Of a stretch of 64,000 bases of DNA, positions 4,886-56,690 are shown piece after piece (the stretch's first letter is position 1; every line of letters begins with the position of its first letter). Source of the stretch: Bdellovibrionota bacterium. GTDB taxonomy: Bacteria > Bdellovibrionota_G > JALEGL01 > JAGRMV01. Where the stretch lies: assembly GCA_041391365.1 (NCBI GenBank), contig JAWKOC010000003.1, positions 261,586 to 325,585 of the forward strand, written 5' to 3'. The translations under genes and the position numbers were made by a program. Below the pieces are notes generated by a model that saw only the letters and a list, made by a program, of their open reading frames with translations, had not been told where the DNA came from and did no database searches.

Positions 4886-6604
4886 TCAAAACTCGAAATC
4901 CAATCCTGTGGGTCCCAGAATTTCCGCATATCCTGAGAGCGTGTTTCGGATTTCCGTTTGCGTGGAAGGCGTTTTGGGATTGAGAGTTACTCCCACAATT
5001 TCGCCCATTTTTGAATTGCTGACCAAAATTTGTGCAACGACTTTATTGTTGATCATTTTTTCTACCTTGGTGGGAATGCCCAACTCACTGTAGGAAAAGA
5101 GAATTTGTTGTTGTTTGTGATCTTCAATGCGCGCAATTTTTCCATGTTGCTCATAATAAATTTTCAACCAACTGCTTGCCGTTTTGCTGTTTTTCGTTTT
5201 CTGCATAGCATAACTTAGGTTGTTGTTTTTGTCGTATCGGTACGACACCTCATCTCCATCTGAACCAATGACCTTCGACAAATAGCCACTGTGATCATCA
5301 TACACAAACGTAGTGATTTCTCCTTTGTTGTTGGTTTTCGAGGTGATTCGTCCTTGATCATCATATTGATATTTGTCTTTGATTCCATTTGTGCTGGTCA
5401 CCGATATGGGTTTTCCACAACAGGTTGATAAAATGGTTGTGGTGGTGACACCGCTCCGATCGGTGTAAGAAACCTTGCTCTCGGAATCGATGTATTCGTA
5501 GGTTGAATTTTCCCCTTGATTGTCTTTGATTTTGCACCACTGCGTTTTGCCGTCACGACCATAGTCATAGGTTGTTTTTTTGGTTCCTGGACCCACTTGT
5601 TCCAAAACTTTTCGAGATTTTTTGTCGTATTTGATGGTGGTGCTTCCCCCACCTTGATAGGTGAGTACGGTCATCTGTCCCAGTTCATCATACTCATACG
5701 ATTCCTTTTTTCCATCCACGGAAGTCATTGAGGCAAGAAGAATATCTTGACCCTGCTTTTTGTAAGAATAGCTCATGGACCGATGGAAAGAGTCTTTGAT
5801 CGATACAATTTTTCCGTCTTGATTGTAATCGATTTGCAAATAATTTTTGCAACCATCATACACTCGTTGCAATCGACTCATGTTGTCGTACACCATTCGA
5901 AGCTCGTTGCCATTGGCATCAAACACCCGAGCCAAAAGACCTCGACCATTGAACAGTTCGGTTCGACCTGTTTCAGAACTGCGCTGATATCCTGCAGATG
6001 TTTCTTTGATCACCGTTTTGCCACGATTGCTGGAAACATAGGTTTTTGAAGGTGAGAGATACATTTGATTTTTTGCATATCTCTGTGCCTGACGATCAAA
6101 AAATTCAGAATCCTCGCGCAGTTTCTTTTCAAAATCTTGATAGACACTTTTTTGTGTCGCCGATGGCGCAGATCCATATCGCTTGTCTTCTTCTTGTTTG
6201 GCGCTGACAATCAAGGCAATGATTTTGCTTCGATCCCCGTTGACATACTCTTGAGGAAGATACTCATTCACAAAACCATCGGCCTCCACGACCTGCAAGC
6301 CTTTCCCCTTCGAAACAGCAATTTTGCTATCAAAATTGAATGTCCACCCCTTTCCAAATGGGCCTTGGCGACTGGAGAGAGAGTTGTACGATCGATACAC
6401 CTCCAGTGGGAAGGAAAAACAGGGCAGATAATAGTCTTGCATGGGTAGAAAAAAATTCCCATTTCGAGTTTGAACAGGGTCAGGAGCGTGATGAATATAG
6501 TGCAATGTGCCGGATGGTCCCCATCCCAGCTGATTTTCCTGCGCCGCAATAGGGTAAGTAGCCAAAATCAATGCCAAAAAAATTGTCCGCGATCCAAAAG
6601 TCAT
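4886..6604 (-). CDS. Secreted YD/RHS-repeat protein (short form)
   Basis: Signal peptide MTFGSRTIFLALILATYPIAAQ from ATG 6604. Repeated YD motifs: YQYDDQGRITSKTNNKGEITTFVYDD, YRYDKNNNLSY, YEYDELGQMT, YDYGRDGK. Confidence 0.8.
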   Translation of the reverse strand: MTFGSRTIFLALILATYPIAAQENQLGWGPSGTLHYIHHAPDPVQTRNGNFFLPMQDYYLPCFSFPLEVYRSYNSLSSRQGPFGKGWTFNFDSKIAVSKGKGLQVVEADGFVNEYLPQEYVNGDRSKIIALIVSAKQEEDKRYGSAPSATQKSVYQDFEKKLREDSEFFDRQAQRYAKNQMYLSPSKTYVSSNRGKTVIKETSAGYQRSSETGRTELFNGRGLLARVFDANGNELRMVYDNMSRLQRVYDGCKNYLQIDYNQDGKIVSIKDSFHRSMSYSYKKQGQDILLASMTSVDGKKESYEYDELGQMTVLTYQGGGSTTIKYDKKSRKVLEQVGPGTKKTTYDYGRDGKTQWCKIKDNQGENSTYEYIDSESKVSYTDRSGVTTTTILSTCCGKPISVTSTNGIKDKYQYDDQGRITSKTNNKGEITTFVYDDHSGYLSKVIGSDGDEVSYRYDKNNNLSYAMQKTKNSKTASSWLKIYYEQHGKIARIEDHKQQQILFSYSELGIPTKVEKMINNKVVAQILVSNSKMGEIVGVTLNPKTPSTQTEIRNTLSGYAEILGPTGLDFEF

Positions 6605-6725
6605 GTCCCTATTATCGGTTCCAGAAGAAAAAAAATCAAATGATAGATGCAAACAAGCTCATCACACTTGCATCCTCACACCTCTGCCAGAGATCACCAT
6701 CATGTGCAGAATCGATCCGATGGCT

Positions 6726-7255: not shown

Positions 7256-9169
7256 TCAATGGGTCTGGCTAAGTTCGGAAATTTTGGTTGCCAACAATTG
7301 ATTGTCCGGCTCATATTGAATGGCCATTTTCAAGTTGATCAACGCCCCATTGCGATCGCTTTTTTCCATGCACTTCATTGCAATGTCATAATATTTTCTT
7401 CCATGTAGAGTCTTGGGCAAAAACTTGTCCATAAAAAGTTGCTGACTCTCGTGATCCGAAACATTCAACGCACTCAATCCAATGGAAACATCGTATTCTT
7501 TTCTCTTTTTTGGATCTTTGATGGTTTGATAAGCCACTGTCATTTTCTTGAATAGATCTTTACAAACGCGCGTAAGATTTTGATCCTTGCTTTGGAAAAA
7601 ACGATCGGGGTGAAAATATTTGCTGCAAAAACGAAAGGATTGATGAAAATCTTCTGAGTTTTGAGAAGGTGTCACACCCAAAACATCATAGTAACTCAGA
7701 TGTTTTTCATGCTTGTTGAGAACATTAAGAATCTCAACAGCAGCTTTCTTGGAATCCAAGGCAATCATGTGCTTTCGGATGGAAGAAGATGCTGGATTGA
7801 GAAGCAAAGCTTTTTGAAACGATCGAAACGCATTCTCGTCTTGCTTGATTTTGGAACACCAAAGACCAAAACACTCGAAAATTTCATAGTGATGAGGAAA
7901 CATCGTCATTACTCTTTTCATAAAACGAAACACTTTTTGATTGGTTTCGATGTCTAAGTATAATTTCTGCCGAATCGCCAATTTTGCATAGGCAATGGGC
8001 AGCAAAAACAAAGAAGGATGGAGTTCAATTTCTTTTTCCAAAAGCTGAAGCGCTTCCATGGCTTGATCATTTCCGATCATCTGTTGAACTTGTTGCAAAA
8101 CCTGCTTTTCTTTTTGAGTTTGACTCTGTTGAACAAACTCATTGCTTTTCCCCTCCAACAAAAATTGGTCGTACTCTCTTCGTTGATCTTCTCGATGCAA
8201 AACCTCATAAGCCTGATTGATTTTTTGCAAAATCTCTTCTGGGAGATTCTTTTCATCATCCTTGAAAAGCTTGATCAAATTTGGGTCTGCATATTTTTGA
8301 TGGAGGCTTTCGTATTTTTTTTCAATGTCCGATGTTTTCGCATTCGTCTCAATGCCAAGCCATCGGTAATAGTTGTGTTCCTGAAGCTTTTGATGAAAGC
8401 TTTCGGCTTCTGCTCGCTGGATCATTTCTTCTTCGGACAATGCCGAAACAAAAATGCGGGCTTTGGACTCTTCCTCTGATTCAATGATGAGGAGTCCCAT
8501 CATTTCAAACAAAATCAGAGTGTGATAAATTTCCATTTTGTCCAAGAAACTAGCTTCAAAAACTTCTTTCACGGTTGAATTGTGAGCCAGCACCGCGGCA
8601 ATGCTGATTTGATTTTGTGTAAATGCAAATTCTTTTTCATTCCATTTGATAGACAACTTGGTGCTTTCATCCTTGAGTTTTGGATTTGCGTGGAAAATTT
8701 TTTCTTGTGTGAACTCCTGAACCACTTTTTCCAAAAATGTTTTTCGATCAAACAGCACGGGAACAGTAGGAGGAAAGTTTTGTGGTGCAAAAACAAGTTT
8801 TGCATGATGTTCGCGAGAAATGTTTTTCAAAATCAATTCGGCCAGCTGCAATTTTTTTTCTACAACTTCTTGAGGAGACAATTTAAGGTTCATCAGTGCC
8901 AAATCCCACTGCCTTATGTTTGGATCTGCCGCTTGCAACAAATACTGTTCGTATTGTTTTGTCGAAAGAAGCTGCTTTTGAAACAAAAAAGAACCTGGAA
9001 GTTCCATTTTTGCATTGGACGACAAAATCAACGCGTTTCCATCTCGAAACAAAATTTGTCGAACACAATTTCCATTGTCAATTTTTAAAATTCCGTTGAG
9101 CTGATGACGAAAAATAGAAGACAGCCCCTGAACAATGTCCAACTGTGAAAATGATAGTTCTTGGGTCAT
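7256..9169 (-). CDS. J-domain co-chaperone-like protein with two J domains and C-terminal TPR
   Basis: Second J domain YYDVLGV...KYFHPDRF keeps HPD. The first, YYRWLGI...KYADPN, lacks it. Has an N-terminal DUF4388-like segment and a C-terminal TPR-like end. Start overlaps the upstream Hsp70 stop by 4 nt. Confidence 0.8.
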   Translation of the reverse strand: MTQELSFSQLDIVQGLSSIFRHQLNGILKIDNGNCVRQILFRDGNALILSSNAKMELPGSFLFQKQLLSTKQYEQYLLQAADPNIRQWDLALMNLKLSPQEVVEKKLQLAELILKNISREHHAKLVFAPQNFPPTVPVLFDRKTFLEKVVQEFTQEKIFHANPKLKDESTKLSIKWNEKEFAFTQNQISIAAVLAHNSTVKEVFEASFLDKMEIYHTLILFEMMGLLIIESEEESKARIFVSALSEEEMIQRAEAESFHQKLQEHNYYRWLGIETNAKTSDIEKKYESLHQKYADPNLIKLFKDDEKNLPEEILQKINQAYEVLHREDQRREYDQFLLEGKSNEFVQQSQTQKEKQVLQQVQQMIGNDQAMEALQLLEKEIELHPSLFLLPIAYAKLAIRQKLYLDIETNQKVFRFMKRVMTMFPHHYEIFECFGLWCSKIKQDENAFRSFQKALLLNPASSSIRKHMIALDSKKAAVEILNVLNKHEKHLSYYDVLGVTPSQNSEDFHQSFRFCSKYFHPDRFFQSKDQNLTRVCKDLFKKMTVAYQTIKDPKKRKEYDVSIGLSALNVSDHESQQLFMDKFLPKTLHGRKYYDIAMKCMEKSDRNGALINLKMAIQYEPDNQLLATKISELSQTH

Positions 9170-10734
9170 ACTGCGTTGAGAGATAATTCTTCGGGAAGAT
9201 TTCCCAATGTCTTGAGCCTTTCATTCTCAAGGCGTCCGGAAGCAATGAGTTTGACCGATTGTTCATTGTTGGTTTCCATATCTCGGGCTGTGACGTTCAA
9301 AATTCCGTTGGTATCGATTTCGAACGTTACCTCAATGGCAACTTCCCCAGCTGGAGCTTGCCGCAGACCTTCCAACGTAAACTCTCCCAACATTTCGTTG
9401 TTTTCAGATCGAGAGGATTCCCCTTGAAAAATTCGAATTTTCACCGAACTTTGGTTGTCAACATTGGTGGTGAATGTTCGTGTGTGATCCACAGGAAGTG
9501 GGGTGTTGATATCAATGATCCTTTGAATGAAGCCCCCGCGAATTTCGATTCCAAGAGAGAGAGGCGTAAGATCGACCAACACCACATCGCTGGTTTGTCC
9601 ACCCAGAATGCTTCCCTGAATGGCTGCACCCACCGCAACCACCAACTCGGGATCGATGTCGGTCTTAGGTGCACGCTGAAAATAGCTTTGAACATACTCT
9701 CGGATGGTGGGCATTTTTGTGGGGCCTCCCACGAGAATCAATCCATCCAAGTTGGATACTGAAAGATGAGCTTTTTGAAAGGCCTCGTCGGCCACCAAAA
9801 ATGTCTTCTGCATCAAATCTTCGATCAGTCTTCCGAGTATTTCTCGTGTGAGAGGAACTTTGATGTCATAGGAAGGAGCATTTCCTCGAACAATCCCAGG
9901 AACAAAAACCTCAGCCTGCTGCTCCACGGACAAAATGTGTTTGGCTCGTTCGCATGCCTCTTGAATTTTTTGATACGTTTCTCGGTCTTGAGATGGATCG
10001 TGGTTGTATTTTTTCTTGGCGAAATCGATGGCCCATTGAATGATGCGGGCATCGATGTCATCTCCACCCAAGTATGTATCACCTGCCGTGGAAACCACCT
10101 CAAACACACCATCTCCCAATTCAAGAACAGAAACATCAAAGGTTCCCCCTCCAAGATCGTAAATGGCCACACGTTGATGCTGATCTTTTCCAAACCCGTA
10201 CGCCAAGGCTGCGGCTGTGGGTTCGTTGATGATGCGAAGAACCTCAAGCCCTGCAATCTTTCCAGCATCCACTGTAGCTGCGCGTTGGTTGTCATTGAAG
10301 TAAGCTGGAACCGTAATCACCGCTTTGGAAAAGGTTTCGGAAAAATATTTTTCCGCAATGGTTTTCATTTTCTTGAGCACCATTGCAGAAATTTCTTGGA
10401 GTGTGTATTGATTCCCACGAATTTCCAATTCCACAGAATCGTTGGGACCTTGAACAATCTTATAGGGTTTGAGTTTTCTGGCTTTTTCCACTTCGGGAGA
10501 AAAAATTTTGCGCCCAATCAATCGCTTGGCAGAACTCACGGTGTTCTGCGGATCCATGATCAAGTAGGGTTTGGCCTGATGACCCACCAAAATTTTTCCA
10601 TCGTCACGAAAATGAACCAAAGAAGGATGAACTTTGACTCCGTTTTGATCCGGAACAATGAAAGGCTTTCCATTGACCATGACTGCCACAACCGAAGTCG
10701 TGGTTCCCAAATCTATGCCAAGAATTTTTTCCAC
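9166..10734 (-). CDS. Atypical short Hsp70 family protein (DnaK paralog, ~522 aa)
   Basis: [35 protein letters not shown] ATPase motifs plus a beta-sandwich substrate domain. Ends before the helical lid and tail of canonical DnaK. Confidence 0.9.
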
Positions 10735-12162: not shown

Positions 12163-13005
12163 CTACGGCTGAAACAAAAAATCTTTGCTGGCCAGCGGTT
12201 TTCTGCGCGCATGTTGCAAGGTTGTGATCATCGAGGGATGCAATTTTTTGTTGCTGGCCACAATTTGACGATTCCACAAATCCTTGATTTTTTTTCCATC
12301 ATAGTCGGTGACTTTTCCGCCAGCTTCTTCCACAAGCAAAATCCCCGCGGCGACATCCCATGGATGAAGACCCGGTTCCCAAAACGCATCAAAACGTCCG
12401 CATGCCACTTGCGCCAAATCCATTGCAGCGGATCCCGGTCTTCGAACGCATCGACTGTTGAGCTCAAAGGTTACAAATTCCGCCATGTTGTTTTCGTTGG
12501 ACTCCTTGCGATTGTAGGGAAATCCTGTAGCCAACAAGGCTTGTGAAAGTTTGGATGTTTTCGAAACCGAAATGGGATTTCCGTTCAGAAATGCGCCCTG
12601 GCCGCGAACCGCATGATAGGTTTCCTTCCACAAAGGATGTTGAATCACTCCCATCCATATCTGCCCCTTCCATACATACGCAATGGAAATTCCAAAAACG
12701 GGGAACCCATGAGAAAAGTTGGTCGTGCCATCGATGGGATCAATGATCCATACCGAACCGTGGTTGAGTTTTACATTGTGATCACTTTCCTCCGCCAAAA
12801 TATGATGATCTGGAAAATGCTTCAAGATGATGGATTTGACGACCTTTTCGCTGGCCACATCGGCGGTCGTCACCAGATCACTTTCGCCTTTGAGACGAGT
12901 TTCAAAATCTCGCTTCAAGGAATGTTTTTTGACCAAGGCCGAGGCCTTGCGTGCAGCCTCCAAGGCAACGCGTTCAATCTCTTTGATGTTTGGCATATTT
13001 TTCAT
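12163..13005 (-). CDS. suhB: Inositol monophosphatase family protein (SuhB-like)
   Basis: IMPase signatures LAEESD, WIIDPIDGTTNF, GSAAMDLAQVACGRFDAFWE. Confidence 0.9.
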   Translation of the reverse strand: MKNMPNIKEIERVALEAARKASALVKKHSLKRDFETRLKGESDLVTTADVASEKVVKSIILKHFPDHHILAEESDHNVKLNHGSVWIIDPIDGTTNFSHGFPVFGISIAYVWKGQIWMGVIQHPLWKETYHAVRGQGAFLNGNPISVSKTSKLSQALLATGFPYNRKESNENNMAEFVTFELNSRCVRRPGSAAMDLAQVACGRFDAFWEPGLHPWDVAAGILLVEEAGGKVTDYDGKKIKDLWNRQIVASNKKLHPSMITTLQHARRKPLASKDFLFQP

Positions 13006-13027
13006 GTGTTTTTCCTATGGAACGATC

Positions 13028-13048
13028 GATTCAAGAGAGTCTTGAATC
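13028..13048. promoter_or_regulatory. Perfect 9-3-9 inverted repeat, candidate enhancer (UAS) or suhB leader element
   Basis: GATTCAAGA-GAG-TCTTGAATC. Lies about 135 bp upstream of the sigma-54 -24 element and 23 nt upstream of the suhB start on the other strand. Confidence 0.3.
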
Positions 13049-13173
13049 ATTTCCGGCTAGAGTTGAGTCATAAATCAGCACAAGGGAACCTCATTCCGAA
13101 CGAAGTGTAAACTTTTGGTTCTTTTTTTCCAAGGTTATTTTTTTAACTATTCAATATCAAAGGGCTTTGCCGA

Positions 13174-13189
13174 TGGCATCAGAATTGCT
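13174..13189 (+). promoter_or_regulatory. Sigma-54 (-24/-12) promoter
   Basis: TGGCATCAGAATTGCT matches TGGCAC-N5-TTGCW with exact GG/GC spacing. Confidence 0.6.
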
Positions 13190-13199
13190 TATGTAATGG

Positions 13200-13360
13200 G
13201 CATGAAACAAACATTCAAAATGAAACTCGAAGGAAGGGAAGAATAGACCCAAACTGATTGTGGATCTTAGACTCCAAACCACCTGAAAACGATGGTGGGA
13301 TGACACAAAAAGTTACAACAACACGAAAAAGCCTGAGAGATAATCTCAGGCTTTTTTTTT
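13200..13360 (+). ncRNA. Candidate sigma-54-dependent small RNA (~160 nt)
   Basis: Bounded by the sigma-54 promoter and a strong intrinsic terminator. No credible ORF inside. Internal hairpin CCACC...GGTGG. Confidence 0.45.
13330..13360 (+). terminator. Rho-independent terminator
   Basis: Stem AGCCTGAGA / TCTCAGGCT (9 bp), 5-nt loop, followed by T9. Confidence 0.8.
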
Positions 13361-13491
13361 GAATATCGTCCCACAGGCCAGGGACGATGAAGTGCCGAAA
13401 AAATGCACAATTTGCTTGGTTTCGACCGACGTTATCGCGTAAAATAAAAGATATCCGCAAACGTCTGAGCAGAAAGTAGGCATCGCTCCTC

Positions 13492-15333
13492 ATGGAATAT
13501 GAAAAAACCCAGCCCCAGTTTCTCGACAAAATCGATGACAGCAAAAGCACCCCCCTTGAAAAATCGTATCTTGTCGCGATGACCGGCCCCCAAGCTGGGA
13601 CGGTATTCACCTTGAGTGAAGGGATCATGATCGTGGGTCGACAACCCACCGCGGACATTTTTCTCAGCGATCATCAGGTTTCACGAAATCATGCAGAGTT
13701 TGTGACCAACATGGGTGAAACTCAGGTGCAAGATCTAGGGTCAACCAACGGTACGTTCGTCAATGGGGAAAAGCTTGAAAAAAAAGTGGCCATCTCCGAT
13801 GGAGACGAGGTGCAGCTTGGAGCCACGTGCTTTCGATTTTCGATTCACAATCCGATTGACGGAAACCGCCTCGGCCTGAACAACCATGGATATTTCGAAA
13901 CACGTATGCACGAAGAGCTTGATCGAGCGTCGCGCTACAAACGAGATTTGTCCATTCTCATGATTGGCCCCAGCATCGAGCCCAAAGACATTCCAGACAA
14001 TGCCAAATTGCTTTCGGATCATTACCCAGATGTCGTCGAAAAAATCCAACAGATCATTCGAACCATGGATTTGTTGGCTCACTATGGAAAGTATGAGCTT
14101 GAGCTGCTTCTGCCTGAAACTTCCAAAAAAGATGCATCTGTATTGGCCAATCGAATCTTGGCCGATGCAACCTTTGGAAAAGATGGAAAGCTATCCATCG
14201 GTGTAGCATCTTTTCCAGAAGATGGTCGAACCCCGGACATCTTGATTGAAAAATCTCGATCGGCTCTCAAAAAAGCTCGGATTGAACATGTCAAACAACC
14301 CGTGGTCATCGATCCCAAAGAAGAGGCCCACCGACTCATTCTCTCGAATCAAAAAGAAGTCATTGTTCGCAGCGAAAAAATGAAAGAGCTGTTTGATGTG
14401 ATTGAACGAATTTCCAAATCCACCATCACTGTATTGATCCAAGGAGAAACAGGGGTCGGAAAAGAAGTGGTGGCTGAAACCATCCACACCCGCAGCGATC
14501 GAAGCAAAAAACCTCTGGTTTGCGTGAACTGTGCGGCGCTGACAGAAACCTTGCTGGAGAGTGAGCTCTTCGGGCATGAAAAAGGTTCTTTCACAGGAGC
14601 AGATCAAACCAAGGTTGGATTGTTTGAAAGTGCAAATGGAGGAACCATCTTCCTGGATGAAATTGGAGAAATGCCTCTCAAAACACAAGCCAAACTGTTG
14701 CGTGTACTGCAAGCCAAAAAAATCATGCGTGTGGGCTCCAACAAAGAACTCGACACTGATGTACGTGTGATTGCTGCCACCAATCGAAAACTTGAAAAGC
14801 AAGTTGAGGACAAAGTGTTTCGAGAAGATTTATTTTATCGTCTCAATGCAGCCACAGTCACCATTCCTCCTCTTCGAGAGCGAAAAAAAGAAATCCCCTA
14901 TTTGGTGCAAACATTCATCAAAGAATGCAGTTCCGAAAACGGTATCGAGAAAAAGGAAATTTCTCCAGACGCTCTCGATGTATTGATGAAATATTCTTGG
15001 CCGGGCAACATTCGAGAACTTCGGAACACCATCGAACGAGCTGTAGTAATTTCCGAGGGAGAAACCATCTACAAAGAAGCTCTGACCAGTCGATTGACTT
15101 CCGATGTGGATCAAGTTTCTACCGGAGCTTCCATTGAGAGTTTGGACAGCGCGGTGGACTCAACCATGGTGGGAGACATGAAAGAAGTGGTCGCCGCTTA
15201 TGAACGAGACATCATCATCAATGCGTTGAAAAAAACGCAGTGGAACCAAACCAAAGCCGCAGATTTGTTAAATGTTCCACGAAGAACGTTGGTTTCGAAG
15301 ATCAAGAAATACAAAATCAAAGATCACGAATAA
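13492..15333 (+). CDS. Sigma-54-dependent transcriptional activator with FHA and degenerate GGDEF-like domains
   Basis: FHA (GRQPTADIFLSDHQVSRNHAEF...GSTNGTFVNG). GGDEF-like middle domain with AHYGKYELELLL in place of RxGGDEF. AAA+ GETGVGKE and ESELFGHEKGSFTGA. C-terminal Fis-type HTH AADLLNVPRRTLVSKIKKY. Confidence 0.9.
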   Translation: MEYEKTQPQFLDKIDDSKSTPLEKSYLVAMTGPQAGTVFTLSEGIMIVGRQPTADIFLSDHQVSRNHAEFVTNMGETQVQDLGSTNGTFVNGEKLEKKVAISDGDEVQLGATCFRFSIHNPIDGNRLGLNNHGYFETRMHEELDRASRYKRDLSILMIGPSIEPKDIPDNAKLLSDHYPDVVEKIQQIIRTMDLLAHYGKYELELLLPETSKKDASVLANRILADATFGKDGKLSIGVASFPEDGRTPDILIEKSRSALKKARIEHVKQPVVIDPKEEAHRLILSNQKEVIVRSEKMKELFDVIERISKSTITVLIQGETGVGKEVVAETIHTRSDRSKKPLVCVNCAALTETLLESELFGHEKGSFTGADQTKVGLFESANGGTIFLDEIGEMPLKTQAKLLRVLQAKKIMRVGSNKELDTDVRVIAATNRKLEKQVEDKVFREDLFYRLNAATVTIPPLRERKKEIPYLVQTFIKECSSENGIEKKEISPDALDVLMKYSWPGNIRELRNTIERAVVISEGETIYKEALTSRLTSDVDQVSTGASIESLDSAVDSTMVGDMKEVVAAYERDIIINALKKTQWNQTKAADLLNVPRRTLVSKIKKYKIKDHE

Positions 15334-15345
15334 GTTGGAGGTAGG

Positions 15346-15948
15346 ATGAAAAAAATTCAATCTCATCAAAATCTTGAAGGTTTTTTTTATCAACAGATCA
15401 AGAATGTTGTGGAAAAAAATTCCATGAACTTGGATGAGGCCTTGGGATTTTATTTGGTGAATCTGTTGTCTACGACACACCAAAAAATTGCCCAATCTGA
15501 CCCATCGGTCATGGACACTCCTCTTGCGCTACTTTTTGGAAAAGCGCAGTCTTCCGAAGACTTGCTCGAAAAACGCGCGCTGTGGAAAAACCTGGGGGAT
15601 CACTCCCTGTACATTTCCGGATTTTTTTCGGATCACCTGACCAAAAGTGCCGTGGACATTGACTACTATATGCACATGGGTGGGACCGCTTATCAAAACG
15701 TTTCTTTTTTGTCTCGGGAGAGCCGAGATCAGCGAGCATTGTCGGACATGTTTGAGAGTTTGGCGAAAAGGTTTCGTGAAATGGTTGATTTGCTCTCTCA
15801 GATCAGCGAATCGGTGGGAATCACGTCCAACGAAGATATTCTTCGGATCTATGAGCGATGGATCCATACCAAAAGCCAACATCTTTTGAAAAAACTCCAG
15901 AACGAAGGCATTGATCCTCTGAATGCAAAGAAAAAAAATTTGCATTGA
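15346..15948 (+). CDS. Hypothetical protein (no recognised domain)
   Basis: 200-aa ORF 12 nt after the activator gene, same strand. No motif recognised. Confidence 0.6.
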   Translation: MKKIQSHQNLEGFFYQQIKNVVEKNSMNLDEALGFYLVNLLSTTHQKIAQSDPSVMDTPLALLFGKAQSSEDLLEKRALWKNLGDHSLYISGFFSDHLTKSAVDIDYYMHMGGTAYQNVSFLSRESRDQRALSDMFESLAKRFREMVDLLSQISESVGITSNEDILRIYERWIHTKSQHLLKKLQNEGIDPLNAKKKNLH

Positions 15949-15966
15949 TCCAAAGGTATTTTTAAG

Positions 15967-16563
15967 ATGTTTGGGCAGTATCTACATCGACAATTGCAAT
16001 TTCTCTACGGGTGGACATCCGATCTCGACATTCAATCTTTTTTGACCCCTCACACATCTTCCTCTGCGTCCTCTTCTGTTCTTTTTCGTCAAAACCAAGA
16101 AGATGTGGAAATTTCCATTGTTCTCAGACCAAAATTGTTTTCTTTGGCTCGTCGAAACAACATTCCCTCCATGCATTTGGCAGATTTTTGTGAACTCGTT
16201 GAAGAAATCAGTCATTTTACCTACCTCACGTTTTGTCTACAGCGACAAAAGCGTGTGAGTTTGTTGGATTTGGAATTGCAGGGTGAGATCGACAAATACC
16301 TGCTCTCCTCTCAAGGGTTTGCATCTGAAAAGCAACTGTTTGAACGCATTTTTGAACGTAGCGCATATCGACAGGGGATGTCTATTCCTATGCTTCACCG
16401 CTATCAGTTGGCCAACCACTTGGGAGGAAAGTTCATTCGAAAAATGGGCCTTCATCATGGTAGAGGAGGTTTTTCATCTTCACTTCTTCAAAAACTTCGA
16501 TGGTTCTATCGACGCCCTTCGTTGGAAAAATGGGCCCATATCGAAAAAACAGAAAATCTTTGA
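15967..16563 (+). CDS. Hypothetical protein (no recognised domain)
   Basis: 198-aa ORF 18 nt after the previous gene, same strand. No motif recognised. Confidence 0.6.
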   Translation: MFGQYLHRQLQFLYGWTSDLDIQSFLTPHTSSSASSSVLFRQNQEDVEISIVLRPKLFSLARRNNIPSMHLADFCELVEEISHFTYLTFCLQRQKRVSLLDLELQGEIDKYLLSSQGFASEKQLFERIFERSAYRQGMSIPMLHRYQLANHLGGKFIRKMGLHHGRGGFSSSLLQKLRWFYRRPSLEKWAHIEKTENL

Positions 16564-16595
16564 TCAATCATTGAGATCATGTAGGAGTAGGCACA

Positions 16596-16940
16596 ATGAG
16601 CAAAGAACAACGATCGGTAAAACGAGTCCCATTCAAATTGAAAGTGGATTACAAAGCTGAAGGAAATTTTCTCTATGAAAATGCCACCAACATCAGTGAG
16701 CATGGCATTTTCATCGAAACCAAAAAACCTCTCAAGCCTGGAACCGTGTTGCAATTGCAATTTACGCTTCCCGAAAGTCGCAAAACTTTGAAAGTGATGG
16801 GAATGGTCAAATGGATCAACCCCTTTCGTGAAAATGCTGACGAAAACTACAATCCCGGGATGGGTGTGCAGTTCGAAAGTTTGGGAGACATCGACAGAGA
16901 AATGCTCCTCAACGCCATCAAACGCATCGCGGTTTTGTAA
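16596..16940 (+). CDS. Single-domain PilZ protein (putative c-di-GMP receptor)
   Basis: KRVPFKLKV (RxxxR-like) and NISEHGIFIET (D/NxSxxG) PilZ motifs. 114 aa. Confidence 0.85.
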   Translation: MSKEQRSVKRVPFKLKVDYKAEGNFLYENATNISEHGIFIETKKPLKPGTVLQLQFTLPESRKTLKVMGMVKWINPFRENADENYNPGMGVQFESLGDIDREMLLNAIKRIAVL

Positions 16941-38720: not shown

Positions 38721-39710
38721 ATGAAAAAAAATCAACTACAACAAGGACCTTACCTATTGGCCGAAACCATGGTGAACGCAGGGCATACCAAAAGTTTTGA
38801 AATTCCAGCGTTTCGATTGCCCACACAAACCATGATCTCTCTCCCCATTCATGTGATTCATGGCGTTCGGCCGGGACCTACGTTGGGACTTTGCGCAGCG
38901 ATTCATGGAAATGAAATCAATGGAATTGAAACCATTCGAAGAATCACGCAAGTCATCGATCCAAAAAAGCTTTCGGGAACCATCATTGCAACTCCCGTGG
39001 TGAACGTGTTTGGATTTATCAATGACTCTCGATATCTGCCCGATCGCAGGGATTTGAATCGAAGTTTTCCAGGTTCAAAACGAGGTTCCATGGCTTCACG
39101 ACTGGCTTTTTTGTTCCGGACCGAAGTGGTGGATCGATGCAACTACATCATTGATTATCACACAGCCTCGGTGGGGAAAAAAAACTATCCTCAAATTCGC
39201 TGCGATTTGTTTGATGGGGATTCCAAAGAATTGGCCAAAGTCTTCAATGCCCCTTTGATTTTGCATTCCAAAAAGATTGCGGGATCTCTGCGAGAACTCG
39301 CGGTAGAAAATGAGTGCAATTTGCTGGTCTATGAGGGAGGTGAGCCCAGTCGCTTTGATGAAAAGGCCATCTCTCTTGCGGTTCGAGGGACGTTTCGTGT
39401 GCTCAGCAAATTGAAGATGCACCCCGCTGTGACCGAAAGTCACAAAGAAGATCTCAAGATCAAGACTCTGATCTGCAATGAAACCAGTTGGATTCGGGCC
39501 CCACGGAGTGGAATCTTTCGGGCCAATTACAAATTGGGGGAACGGGTCAAAGACAAGTGCGTACTCGGGACCATCAACGATATTTTTGGAAATTCCCTTG
39601 GAAATGTACGCAGTCACATGAATGGAATTGTGGCGGGAATCGCCACCAACCCCTCGGTTCATCAAGGGGATGCCTTGATTCACATTGGTCGAATCAAGGA
39701 AGCCTCGTAG
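38721..39710 (+). CDS. Succinylglutamate desuccinylase/aspartoacylase family zinc hydrolase
   Basis: AIHGNEINGIE zinc-binding motif, DLNRSFPG, and ~330-aa length fit the AstE/AspA family. Confidence 0.85.
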   Translation: MKKNQLQQGPYLLAETMVNAGHTKSFEIPAFRLPTQTMISLPIHVIHGVRPGPTLGLCAAIHGNEINGIETIRRITQVIDPKKLSGTIIATPVVNVFGFINDSRYLPDRRDLNRSFPGSKRGSMASRLAFLFRTEVVDRCNYIIDYHTASVGKKNYPQIRCDLFDGDSKELAKVFNAPLILHSKKIAGSLRELAVENECNLLVYEGGEPSRFDEKAISLAVRGTFRVLSKLKMHPAVTESHKEDLKIKTLICNETSWIRAPRSGIFRANYKLGERVKDKCVLGTINDIFGNSLGNVRSHMNGIVAGIATNPSVHQGDALIHIGRIKEAS

Positions 39711-43820: not shown

Positions 43821-43864
43821 AAAGTACCTGGCACCTTTTCAATCCAAAGGTGCCAAGTACTTTT
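43821..43864. terminator. Bidirectional terminator hairpin between convergent genes
   Basis: AAAGTACCTGGCACCTTT-TCAATCC-AAAGGTGCCAAGTACTTT: 18-bp stem with one mismatch and T-runs on both strands. Confidence 0.7.
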
Positions 43865-44396: not shown

Positions 44397-44850
44397 CTAG
44401 CGCCGGTGCGCACCCGTTGTCAATGGAAAAATCAATGTGCTTTTTTGTCTATTTTTGATGGGGATCAGGCGAAAAAGCATTTTGGGTCTCTTGGGATGGG
44501 CGATGAAGCGATCGGAATCTGCTTTGCAGTCGTTGCATCCAAGATAAATGATGACAACGTCCAAAGGAAATTGGCTATCCATCCTGTGATTTGCTCACTT
44601 AGGCCGTAAATATTTCCACTATCAATGTAGGTACATTGATGATTTTGGATCCCTTGAAAAAGAATCTCAGAAAAATCTTTGGTGCGTAGAAATGGTTCAC
44701 GAAGATCATCGGATACTTTTCCTCCGATGCCCTATTTTCCCAATCCATTTGCTCTGTTCATCATAAAACCGTTTTGCATTAGGCCTGTACCCGGTACAAA
44801 ATCGCCAAAAGTGTACCGGGTGCAAAAAGGGGAATTTGGTGCCAGATCAT
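44397..44850 (-). pseudogene. Decayed SGNH/GDSL-hydrolase gene remnant
   Basis: Minus-strand translation gives block I-like YTFGDF (Ser replaced by Phe), an in-frame TAG near 44732-44734, then a frame change to ...PLDVVIIYLGCNDC (block III GxND). No start codon and no block V. Confidence 0.4.
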
Positions 44851-44902
44851 TTCCGGACACCGAAAATCGGTCTAAGGATTTTGTTCGACCTCTGAATACA
44901 GG

Positions 44903-45298
44903 TCAGATTAACTCAGCTTGGGCTTGAAGCCAGTCTCGCGTGGCGAAGAGTTCTTCGCGCTGCTGAACAGAAACATCTGGGGAGAGAAGTTGGGTTTCCA
45001 ATTCTTCACGCTGTGCTTTGAGTCGATCGACATCAATGTCAGTGGCAAATGCGGCCTGATCGGCAAGGATCATCACCTTGTTGTCGCTGACTTCAAAAAA
45101 TCCCCCTCGAAGGGCCATTTTTTTGTCACCTTCGGTTTGATGAATGGTGATCACACCTGCTCCCAACTGCGAAACCAGATGCGCATGTTCTGTCAAAAGA
45201 CCCGTTTGTCCTTTGCTGCTCGGAACATACACATCCAAGCATGTGCCTTCAAACACATGCTTGGAGGGTGTGACAATGATGATGTCGATCGTGCTCAT
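44903..45298 (-). CDS. atpC: F1 ATP synthase epsilon subunit
   Basis: 131 aa directly after atpD, with the typical epsilon beta-sandwich plus helical hairpin text. Confidence 0.95.
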   Translation of the reverse strand: MSTIDIIIVTPSKHVFEGTCLDVYVPSSKGQTGLLTEHAHLVSQLGAGVITIHQTEGDKKMALRGGFFEVSDNKVMILADQAAFATDIDVDRLKAQREELETQLLSPDVSVQQREELFATRDWLQAQAELI

Positions 45299-55497: not shown

Positions 55498-55547
55498 TGA
55501 AATTTGATTCTATCATTTTTTTGAATATAACGCTTGCAATCCATAAT

Positions 55548-55571
55548 GTACTGATGTATCAGTACATCAGT
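55548..55571. promoter_or_regulatory. Overlapping palindromes, candidate TrpR-family operator
   Basis: GTACTGATGTATCAGTACATCAGT contains GTACTGAT-GT-ATCAGTAC (8-2-8) and GATGTA-TCAG-TACATC (6-4-6). Lies 51-74 nt upstream of the TrpR-like start, in the divergent intergenic region. Confidence 0.5.
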
Positions 55572-56522: not shown

Positions 56523-56690
56523 TGTAGTCATTATTGTCTGTCTATGGGGTGCGGAAAGAGGAGCCTCTTCTTTCCGCATTCATGGATTTATAACAGCCCT
56601 CAAACGACAAAAACGCGAAAACATCCCTGTGTTTCGATGGTGAAGGATCATGAAAAATCATTGGAAGCTTTGGTGAAAATTTCATAGTCT

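Follow-up and report, generated by a model that had tools for sequence, protein, structure and literature searches.

An independent gene for a small non-coding RNA (sRNA) of about 160 nucleotides (nt) probably lies in the intergenic region that precedes a sigma-54 activator gene of an uncultured Bdellovibrio-like bacterium. The DNA studied is a stretch of 64,000 nt (the window) from Bdellovibrionota bacterium assembly GCA_041391365.1, contig JAWKOC010000003.1, positions 261,586-325,585 of the forward strand. The predicted transcript occupies 13199-13360 on the plus strand of the window, and its extent follows from the positions of a sigma-54 (-24/-12) promoter and an intrinsic terminator. It lies in the intergenic region 13006-13491, between a divergent gene of the inositol monophosphatase family (12163-13005, minus strand, ATG at 13005) and the gene of a sigma-54 enhancer-binding protein, the candidate activator (13492-15333, plus strand). 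An initial annotation of this DNA had proposed an sRNA of this length here. The discrete promoter-to-terminator non-coding unit stands, with its promoter cores, the 5' 58 nt and the terminator kept in the one close relative, while we infer from the sequence that it is transcribed, where transcription starts, that it acts in trans and which activator it obeys.

The case is built on comparison with this relative, locus L081 of the 'Bdellovibrionales bacterium' metagenome-assembled genome (MAG) GCA_020434365.1, whose activator is 88% identical (L082 is a second assembly of the same contig). Nine further loci were compared in all (L081, L083-L087, L208, L209 and L210); beyond L081, the series of activator orthologues in Bdellovibrionota-type MAGs runs from 45 to 73% identity. 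The intergenic region is 486 nt long in the window and 476 nt in L081. At four-fold degenerate sites the two genomes are 35%, 42% and 32% identical in three flanking genes, so that neutral positions are near saturation. Conserved against this saturation are three upstream blocks, the -24 TGGCA, the -12 TTGCT, the segment 13193-13250 and the terminator arms with their T-run, and three more conserved blocks precede the activator gene. In this alignment, blockwise conservation together with a drifting promoter spacer and compensatory stem changes is a signature of selection. The comparison thus establishes that the elements exist and are selectively conserved, that the conserved block within the predicted RNA is non-coding, and that the promoter of the activator gene is separate.

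The sigma-54 promoter reads TGGCAT-CAGAA-TTGCT (TGGCATCAGAATTGCT, 13174-13189, plus strand). Its GG and GC are exactly 10 nt apart, in accordance with TGGCAC-N5-TTGCW at a GG/GC spacing of 10 nt, and the initial annotation was right in reading it as a consensus site with exact spacing. The counterpart in L081, TGGCAC-TGCTT-TTGCT (TGGCACTGCTTTTGCT), lies at the same aligned place. Both cores are identical between the genomes except for one pyrimidine transition, none of the five spacer positions agrees, and the flanks have diverged. The 64 kb contain a single exact match to the pattern where 0.27 would be expected, and at least one match occurred in 24 of 100 shuffled sequences; the motif by itself is not significant. 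It is the top-scoring sigma-54-like site in the 64 kb and the sole strong intergenic one, all other near-matches being within coding regions. Transcription is predicted to start at about G13199/G13200, 11-12 nt past the -12 GC (-12 C at 13188).

At the other end of the unit is an intrinsic terminator (13326-13360, plus strand) with a 14-bp stem, a 5-nt loop and nine U. Its core, AGCCTGAGA / GATAA / TCTCAGGCT at 13330-13352, is followed by nine T at 13352-13360. This confirms the strong 9-bp stem plus T9 described earlier at 13330-13360 and extends it, since A13326-13330 lengthen the stem to 14 bp, with a predicted energy of -20.4 kcal/mol (z = -6.2) compared with -18.9 kcal/mol in L081. The six outer core pairs are the same in both genomes except for one U-A to U-G change, and the next two inner pairs change on both sides, from G-C to A-U and from A-U to U-A. 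L081 has two further pairs and a different loop, with the outer stem and the T-run kept. We assigned these pairs manually, since MAFFT places the inner stem wrongly where the two loops are of unequal length. On the plus strand the tail reads U9 in the window and UUUUUUCUUU in L081, compared with just U5 or U4 on the opposite strand; the weaker minus-strand tail indicates that the plus orientation is the functional one. As the flanking genes are divergent, a terminator on the plus strand can only end a transcript begun inside the intergenic region. A second, 8-bp hairpin, ATCGTCCC/GGGACGAT, follows at 13365-13388 (plus strand, -13.9 kcal/mol). It had been noted before and is present as described, but it is deleted in L081 and by this comparison is not part of the conserved unit.

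Between promoter and terminator, the predicted RNA has a minimum free energy of -37.7 kcal/mol (z = -3.5) with its first 37 nt unpaired in the fold, and it is about 199 nt long in L081. The conserved 5' block, ATGGGCATGAAACAAA ... TCGAAGGAAGGGAAGAAT ... CCC (13193-13250, plus strand, 58 nt), is A-/purine-rich, largely unpaired in the window fold and at least 80% identical in 15-column windows between the two genomes, and it is the candidate functional (seed) region. Averaged over the first 45 nt, the probability of being unpaired comes to 0.71 for the window and 0.52 for L081. The central part (13251-13320, plus strand) is variable, with 30% column identity and 26 + 9 extra nt in L081. It includes a short GC hairpin, CCACC-N10-GGTGG (13280-13299, plus strand, -8.1 kcal/mol), followed by GGGAU, and the unpaired A/C-rich linker ACAACAAC ahead of the terminator (13316-13323, plus strand). 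L081 has CCCUC-ACAA-GAGGG + GGGAU in the place of this hairpin, ahead of the same linker. Common to both homologues are therefore an A-/purine-rich 5' region, a GGG-N9-CCC hairpin, UGGAUC, a short GC hairpin with GGGAU, the linker and the terminator. The AT skew is strongly positive across the RNA, and each homologue has four GGA motifs (at 34, 39, 64 and 100 of the RNA in the window, and at 32, 37, 60 and 136 in L081), with similar local sequence where the homologues align and none displayed in a hairpin loop.

Is the unit a gene of its own, or the beginning of the activator transcript? The activator gene has a sigma-70-like promoter, TTGGTT-N18-TAAAAT (13416-13445, plus strand), downstream of the terminator. 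Over seven orthologous loci, in an alignment of about 100 nt before the start codon, its consensus is TTGGYK-N18-TAnnAT, in which the -35 TGG (of TTGG), the -10 TAnnAT and the 18-nt spacing are invariant. Of three relatives added later, L208 and L209 have the same pattern. Since this promoter is shared with relatives that lack the unit, the activator has its own promoter; given also the strong terminator and the poorly conserved segment before it, a separate sRNA gene is more plausible than an attenuated leader. The leader was the alternative offered by the initial annotation. It would make the sigma-54 promoter a second promoter of the activator operon, with a conditional terminator inside a leader of about 290 nt and positive autoregulation through read-through. 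The unit does lie on the strand of the activator gene and immediately upstream of it, some read-through is compatible with the sequence, and cbrB-crcZ of Pseudomonas shows that sRNA and activator transcripts may be physically linked (PMC5113210). However, both genomes have a strong terminator (14-bp stem, U9, about -20 kcal/mol), inspection by eye revealed no conserved antiterminator (alternative) pairing, and the stretch leading up to the terminator, variable in length and 30% identical, is the least conserved part, unlike a sensor domain. Furthermore, both in the window and at eight of the nine related loci the sigma-70-like promoter is located past the terminator, the intergenic regions of relatives (121-206 nt) are too short for such a leader, and no Rfam cis-regulatory family matches. 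The activator's own conserved promoter downstream of the terminator speaks against a leader, which we regard as unlikely.

Three other explanations have to be weighed. The same unit could produce a protein-sequestering RNA, either CsrB/RsmZ-like through its GGA motifs or CrcZ-like with A-rich tracts that titrate Hfq. The four GGA motifs per homologue, the positive AT skew and the conserved linker before the terminator are in line with this idea, as is the precedent of CrcZ, which is sigma-54-dependent and adjoins its activator gene (PMC5113210). However, four GGA motifs are about twice the expectation from composition, itself a rough estimate, and they are not in hairpin loops; nor was csrA or hfq seen in the scanned part of the window, a scan that did not include short open reading frames (ORFs). 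Known Csr/Rsm RNAs carry far more GGA motifs than four. We consider sequestration about as improbable as the leader. A small-protein gene, in which the 5' block would encode a leaderless or short-leader micro-peptide MGMKQ..., is the least probable of all and can be set aside almost entirely. A 16-codon frame does run from ATG 13196 to TAG 13244-13246 on the plus strand, inside the conserved 5' block, and ATG GGC ATG AAA CAA at the predicted start is identical in both genomes. A 2-nt indel past codon 5 nevertheless puts the two genomes in different frames (window ...TFKMKLEGREE*, L081 ...RSKENRRMGRMIPDLMDR*), while the block ATGGGCATGAAACAAA...TCGAAGGA(A/T)GGGAAGAAT remains conserved in nucleotides across it. 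The broken frame amid conserved nucleotides argues that the 5' block is not coding, and the micro-ORF was rejected on this ground. There is no ribosome-binding site, and the indels of 2, 26, 9, 2 and 5 nt between the window and L081 leave no other frame intact on either strand, which bears out the earlier statement that no credible ORF lies between promoter and terminator. Finally, the unit might have no function: a sigma-54-like motif could by chance lie beside a terminator that is stray or bidirectional, or a lost gene could be decaying here. The expected 0.27 motifs per window and the lack of the unit in eight relatives fit such an origin, but blockwise conservation against saturated synonymous sites, the drifting promoter spacer and the compensatory stem changes do not, and we judge it very unlikely.

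The sRNA gene is the reading that accounts best for these features, and its mode of action can be outlined as follows. Sigma-54 RNA polymerase would bind TGGCAT-N5-TTGCT, and an enhancer-binding ATPase acting from upstream would open the polymerase complex. Transcription would start near G13199/13200 and stop at the strong intrinsic terminator. The conserved A-/purine-rich 5' 50-60 nt would be the working part of the RNA, most likely by base-pairing with mRNAs made elsewhere in the genome, and the A/C-rich linker, terminator hairpin and U-tail would provide stability and perhaps a chaperone-binding site. The neighbouring activator, with its FHA and degenerate GGDEF domains, would by adjacency be the most economical candidate for the ATPase.

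Several observations weigh against this reading. The unit is absent at the same intergenic place in the eight relatives with 64-73% activator identity. Their intergenic regions measure merely 121-206 nt and contain neither a near-consensus GG-N10-GC site nor similarity to the RNA. Promoter and terminator are therefore kept upstream of the orthologous activator in L081 and missing in the eight distant orthologues, and the initial annotation had regarded such a loss as speaking against the sRNA. Homologues were also lacking in the searches made beyond these loci. A scan of metagenome DNA for the pattern of promoter plus 5' block gave 0 matches; a looser scan with two RNA blocks gave at least 120 chance matches in purine-rich DNA, with no sigma-54 promoter or wider similarity, the best of which (L183) was rejected as unrelated AT-rich DNA. 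Neither a paralogue in the 64-kb window nor a further copy in the compared loci was found with blastn and nhmmer. Because the unit is carried by two genomes only, there is no statistical covariation to draw on. The central structure is not conserved, and the 5' block is predicted to be partly paired in L081, so that secondary structure outside the terminator is not established. In addition, a crude duplex scan of 60 translation-start regions in the 64-kb window gave no target above the shuffled-seed null (the best duplex with the seed reached -28.9 kcal/mol, and the shuffled-seed mean was -27.3 kcal/mol).

The surroundings of the unit are more widely shared than the unit itself. The activator is followed by two proteins of about 200 residues and of no known family at all nine loci, and a PilZ protein comes next, in the same order, at eight of the nine; the ninth, L209, ends at the contig edge. 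An inositol-monophosphatase gene stands divergent upstream in eight of the nine; L209 instead has a same-strand gene there, without a family hit. A contig search with the whole activator protein returned generic sigma-54 ATPases through FLDEIGEM (best identity 38%) and no orthologues, and the window protein has no exact match on record. As known from two genomes, the unit is either an addition to that small lineage or an ancestral feature retained in it. In L083, a 73% relative, a weak hairpin AGCTCAA-N31-TTGAGCT with T7 is followed by GCACAATTTTG (2860-2925), an order that matches the window's terminator T9 and then TGCACAATTTG. This hairpin and T7 may be a relic of the same unit.

Which activator drives the promoter? 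The domain content of the gene at 13492-15333 (FHA, a degenerate, partial GGDEF, Sigma54_activat, AAA lid and HTH_8) verifies its earlier assignment as a sigma-54 enhancer-binding protein. In its middle domain, 'AHYGKYELELLLPET', GKYEL replaces GGDEF and an RxxD motif (RTMD) stands five residues upstream; this motif is kept in all seven orthologues listed among proteins P0002-P0022. The position of RTMD suggests, by resemblance, a cyclic di-GMP (c-di-GMP) inhibitory site (I-site), and the combination of FHA, degenerate GGDEF, sigma-54 AAA+ and helix-turn-helix (HTH) domains looks like a predicted enhancer-binding protein that senses c-di-GMP and phospho-Thr. That this neighbour acts on the sRNA promoter is suggested by adjacency and precedent, and we give it somewhat less than an even chance.

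The evidence at this locus on the activator link is neutral to slightly negative. The family has one conserved dyad, the 16-bp palindrome TGGCGAA-N2-TTCGCCA. Every one of the eight relatives of 64-73% identity has it, overlapping the -35 of the activator promoter: L083 2948-2963, L084 2925-2940, L085 2925-2940, L086 2907-2922, L087 2963-2978, L208 1969-1984, L209 1095-1110 and L210 2945-2960. The copies in L084, L087 and L208 are perfect, that of L210 has a single mismatch and the remaining four have two each; the palindrome looks like a predicted operator, perhaps an autoregulatory one. Three points speak against the link: the HTH of the family is, in the aligned proteins, essentially invariant; the palindrome is absent throughout the intergenic region of the window and L081; and there is no sigma-54 promoter within 3 kb of the relatives' activator genes, which implies that the activator protein normally acts at distant sites. 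Nor was a shared binding motif found. The window and L081, the two carriers of the sRNA unit, conserve a different block, TGCCGAAAWAATGCACAA (window 13393-13410). A bolder idea is that the RNA is a recently acquired output of an activator reading Ser/Thr phosphorylation through FHA and c-di-GMP through the degenerate GGDEF with its RxxD I-site; we consider it quite unlikely. If it were true, c-di-GMP and kinase signalling in a predatory Bdellovibrionota lineage would be relayed post-transcriptionally by an sRNA, possibly a GGA protein sponge, and the loss of the family palindrome in exactly the two RNA-carrying genomes would mark a rewired feedback of the circuit.

Upstream of the promoter, two conserved blocks occupy 13064-13091 and 13100-13128 (-136 to -72 relative to the predicted start). 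They are candidates for activator binding or, equally, for the promoter of the divergent gene, are without a clear dyad and do not recur elsewhere in the window. A conserved T-rich block (13135-13160, -65 to -40) could possibly bend the DNA that separates the upstream sites from the promoter; no integration host factor (IHF) consensus was seen in it by eye. The initial annotation had placed the enhancer farther upstream, in the perfect 9-3-9 inverted repeat GATTCAAGA-GAG-TCTTGAATC (13028-13048), 23 nt upstream of the divergent gene's ATG (13005). The repeat exists, but an enhancer role did not hold up, as the window and L081 share 31% identity over 13006-13070 and no inverted repeat was found in the matching L081 stretch. 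The window has seven places with a perfect inverted repeat of 9 bp or more and a loop of 3-10 nt (12 raw matches versus about 2.25 per shuffle). The 9-3-9 palindrome is unusual, not unique and not conserved, and it is probably not part of the sRNA unit. Other such repeats lie at 43829-43855, 56551-56577, 55546-55571, 45236-45263 and 39673-39699; those at 43829 and 56551 are just past gene ends and terminator-like, and that at 55546 is between divergent genes.

A sigma-54-dependent sRNA beside an enhancer-binding protein gene is an arrangement already established in other bacteria. By the family searches, the RNA described here, which would operate along broadly the lines of the known examples, is a new, lineage-restricted one of this known arrangement, in none of the families of the known systems and with no Rfam match. 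In Rfam 15, no hit reached the gathering score in the 64 kb, and E values up to 10 added terminator-driven sub-threshold hits only. In Myxococcus xanthus, pxr adjoins the NtrC-like pxrR (Nla19), and it has a predicted sigma-54 promoter with a region for enhancer binding upstream (PMC5684412). The likeness to Pxr/PxrR consists in an sRNA gene directly beside a sigma-54 activator gene in a predatory host formerly placed in Deltaproteobacteria, and in a conserved 5' part with a variable 3' stem-loop, which is reminiscent only. In contrast to pxr, which lies downstream of pxrR, the RNA gene here is upstream of the activator gene; no similarity in sequence or structure connects the two RNAs (no Rfam hit), and the activator has FHA and degenerate GGDEF inputs, whereas PxrR belongs to a two-component system. 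In Desulfovibrio vulgaris, the mapped target of the sigma-54-dependent regulator DVU0679 is the adjoining sRNA gene Dv_sRNA2 (PMC3333781), and the sigma-54 regulome of this species includes four non-coding RNAs (PMC4641369). Binding was determined there by DNA-affinity-purified chip (DAP-chip) and electrophoretic mobility shift assay (EMSA), and expression by tiling array, whereas the present unit is known from sequence alone. The lineage also differs from that of the Desulfovibrio sRNAs, and no sequence relation to them was found.

Other parallels come from Vibrio, Pseudomonas and Enterobacteriaceae. In Vibrio, qrr1 adjoins luxO, and the Qrr RNAs are about 100 nt long, with a 32-nt invariant seed, and occur in several copies. 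The proposed mode of action here resembles that of Qrr, with a conserved single-stranded seed, a terminator and the participation of Hfq, but no similar Rfam family was found, whether at the gathering score or with E allowed up to 10, and no paralogue turned up in the 64 kb. The Vibrio Qrr sRNA is sigma-54-dependent and depends on the sigma-54 activator LuxO (bioRxiv 10.1101/2021.07.01.450815). In Pseudomonas, the A-rich CrcZ, which depends on sigma-54 and CbrB, lies immediately beside cbrB, on its downstream side, can be processed from the cbrB transcript and sequesters Hfq/Crc (PMC5113210). At the present locus, in contrast, the RNA is set apart from the activator gene by a terminator and a separate promoter. 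CrcZ is also a longer RNA, of about 400 nt. In Enterobacteriaceae, GlmY is a sigma-54-dependent sRNA whose gene neighbours the operon of its activator GlrR, and it acts by protein mimicry or titration of RapZ; the RNA described here, unlike GlmY, matches no Rfam family. We know of no published sigma-54-dependent sRNA in Bdellovibrionota, and none surfaced in the literature search.

A validated example would open the way to studying the output of an enhancer-binding protein whose inputs are unusual (FHA, and a degenerate GGDEF with an I-site-like RxxD, with a PilZ gene downstream), and it would show the insertion of a regulatory RNA gene beside an existing regulator within one genus-level lineage. 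As the principle is already established, the gain is mainly in local annotation and in a testable regulatory hypothesis.

With regard to the wider locus, the intergenic region 13006-13491 is one of the two largest gaps in a densely coding window. Transfer RNA, tmRNA and tandem-repeat readings of it were ruled out, as no match of these kinds was found there. The other large gap (44414-44902, 489 nt) is without an ORF of at least 90 codons and has no Rfam match at the gathering score. Synteny with the divergent inositol monophosphatase gene, which bounds the region, is kept in most relatives. Downstream of the activator, the cluster at 15346-16940 consists of two proteins of about 200 residues without a Pfam hit and then a PilZ-domain protein (16596-16940). 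On the upstream side, the window encodes an RHS-repeat/DUF6531 protein and a DnaJ-domain protein paired with a 522-residue Hsp70-like protein (4886-6652 and 7256-10734, both on the minus strand). The Hsp70-like gene is found upstream of the locus in six relatives, two of which (L084 and L210) also have the DnaJ-domain gene.

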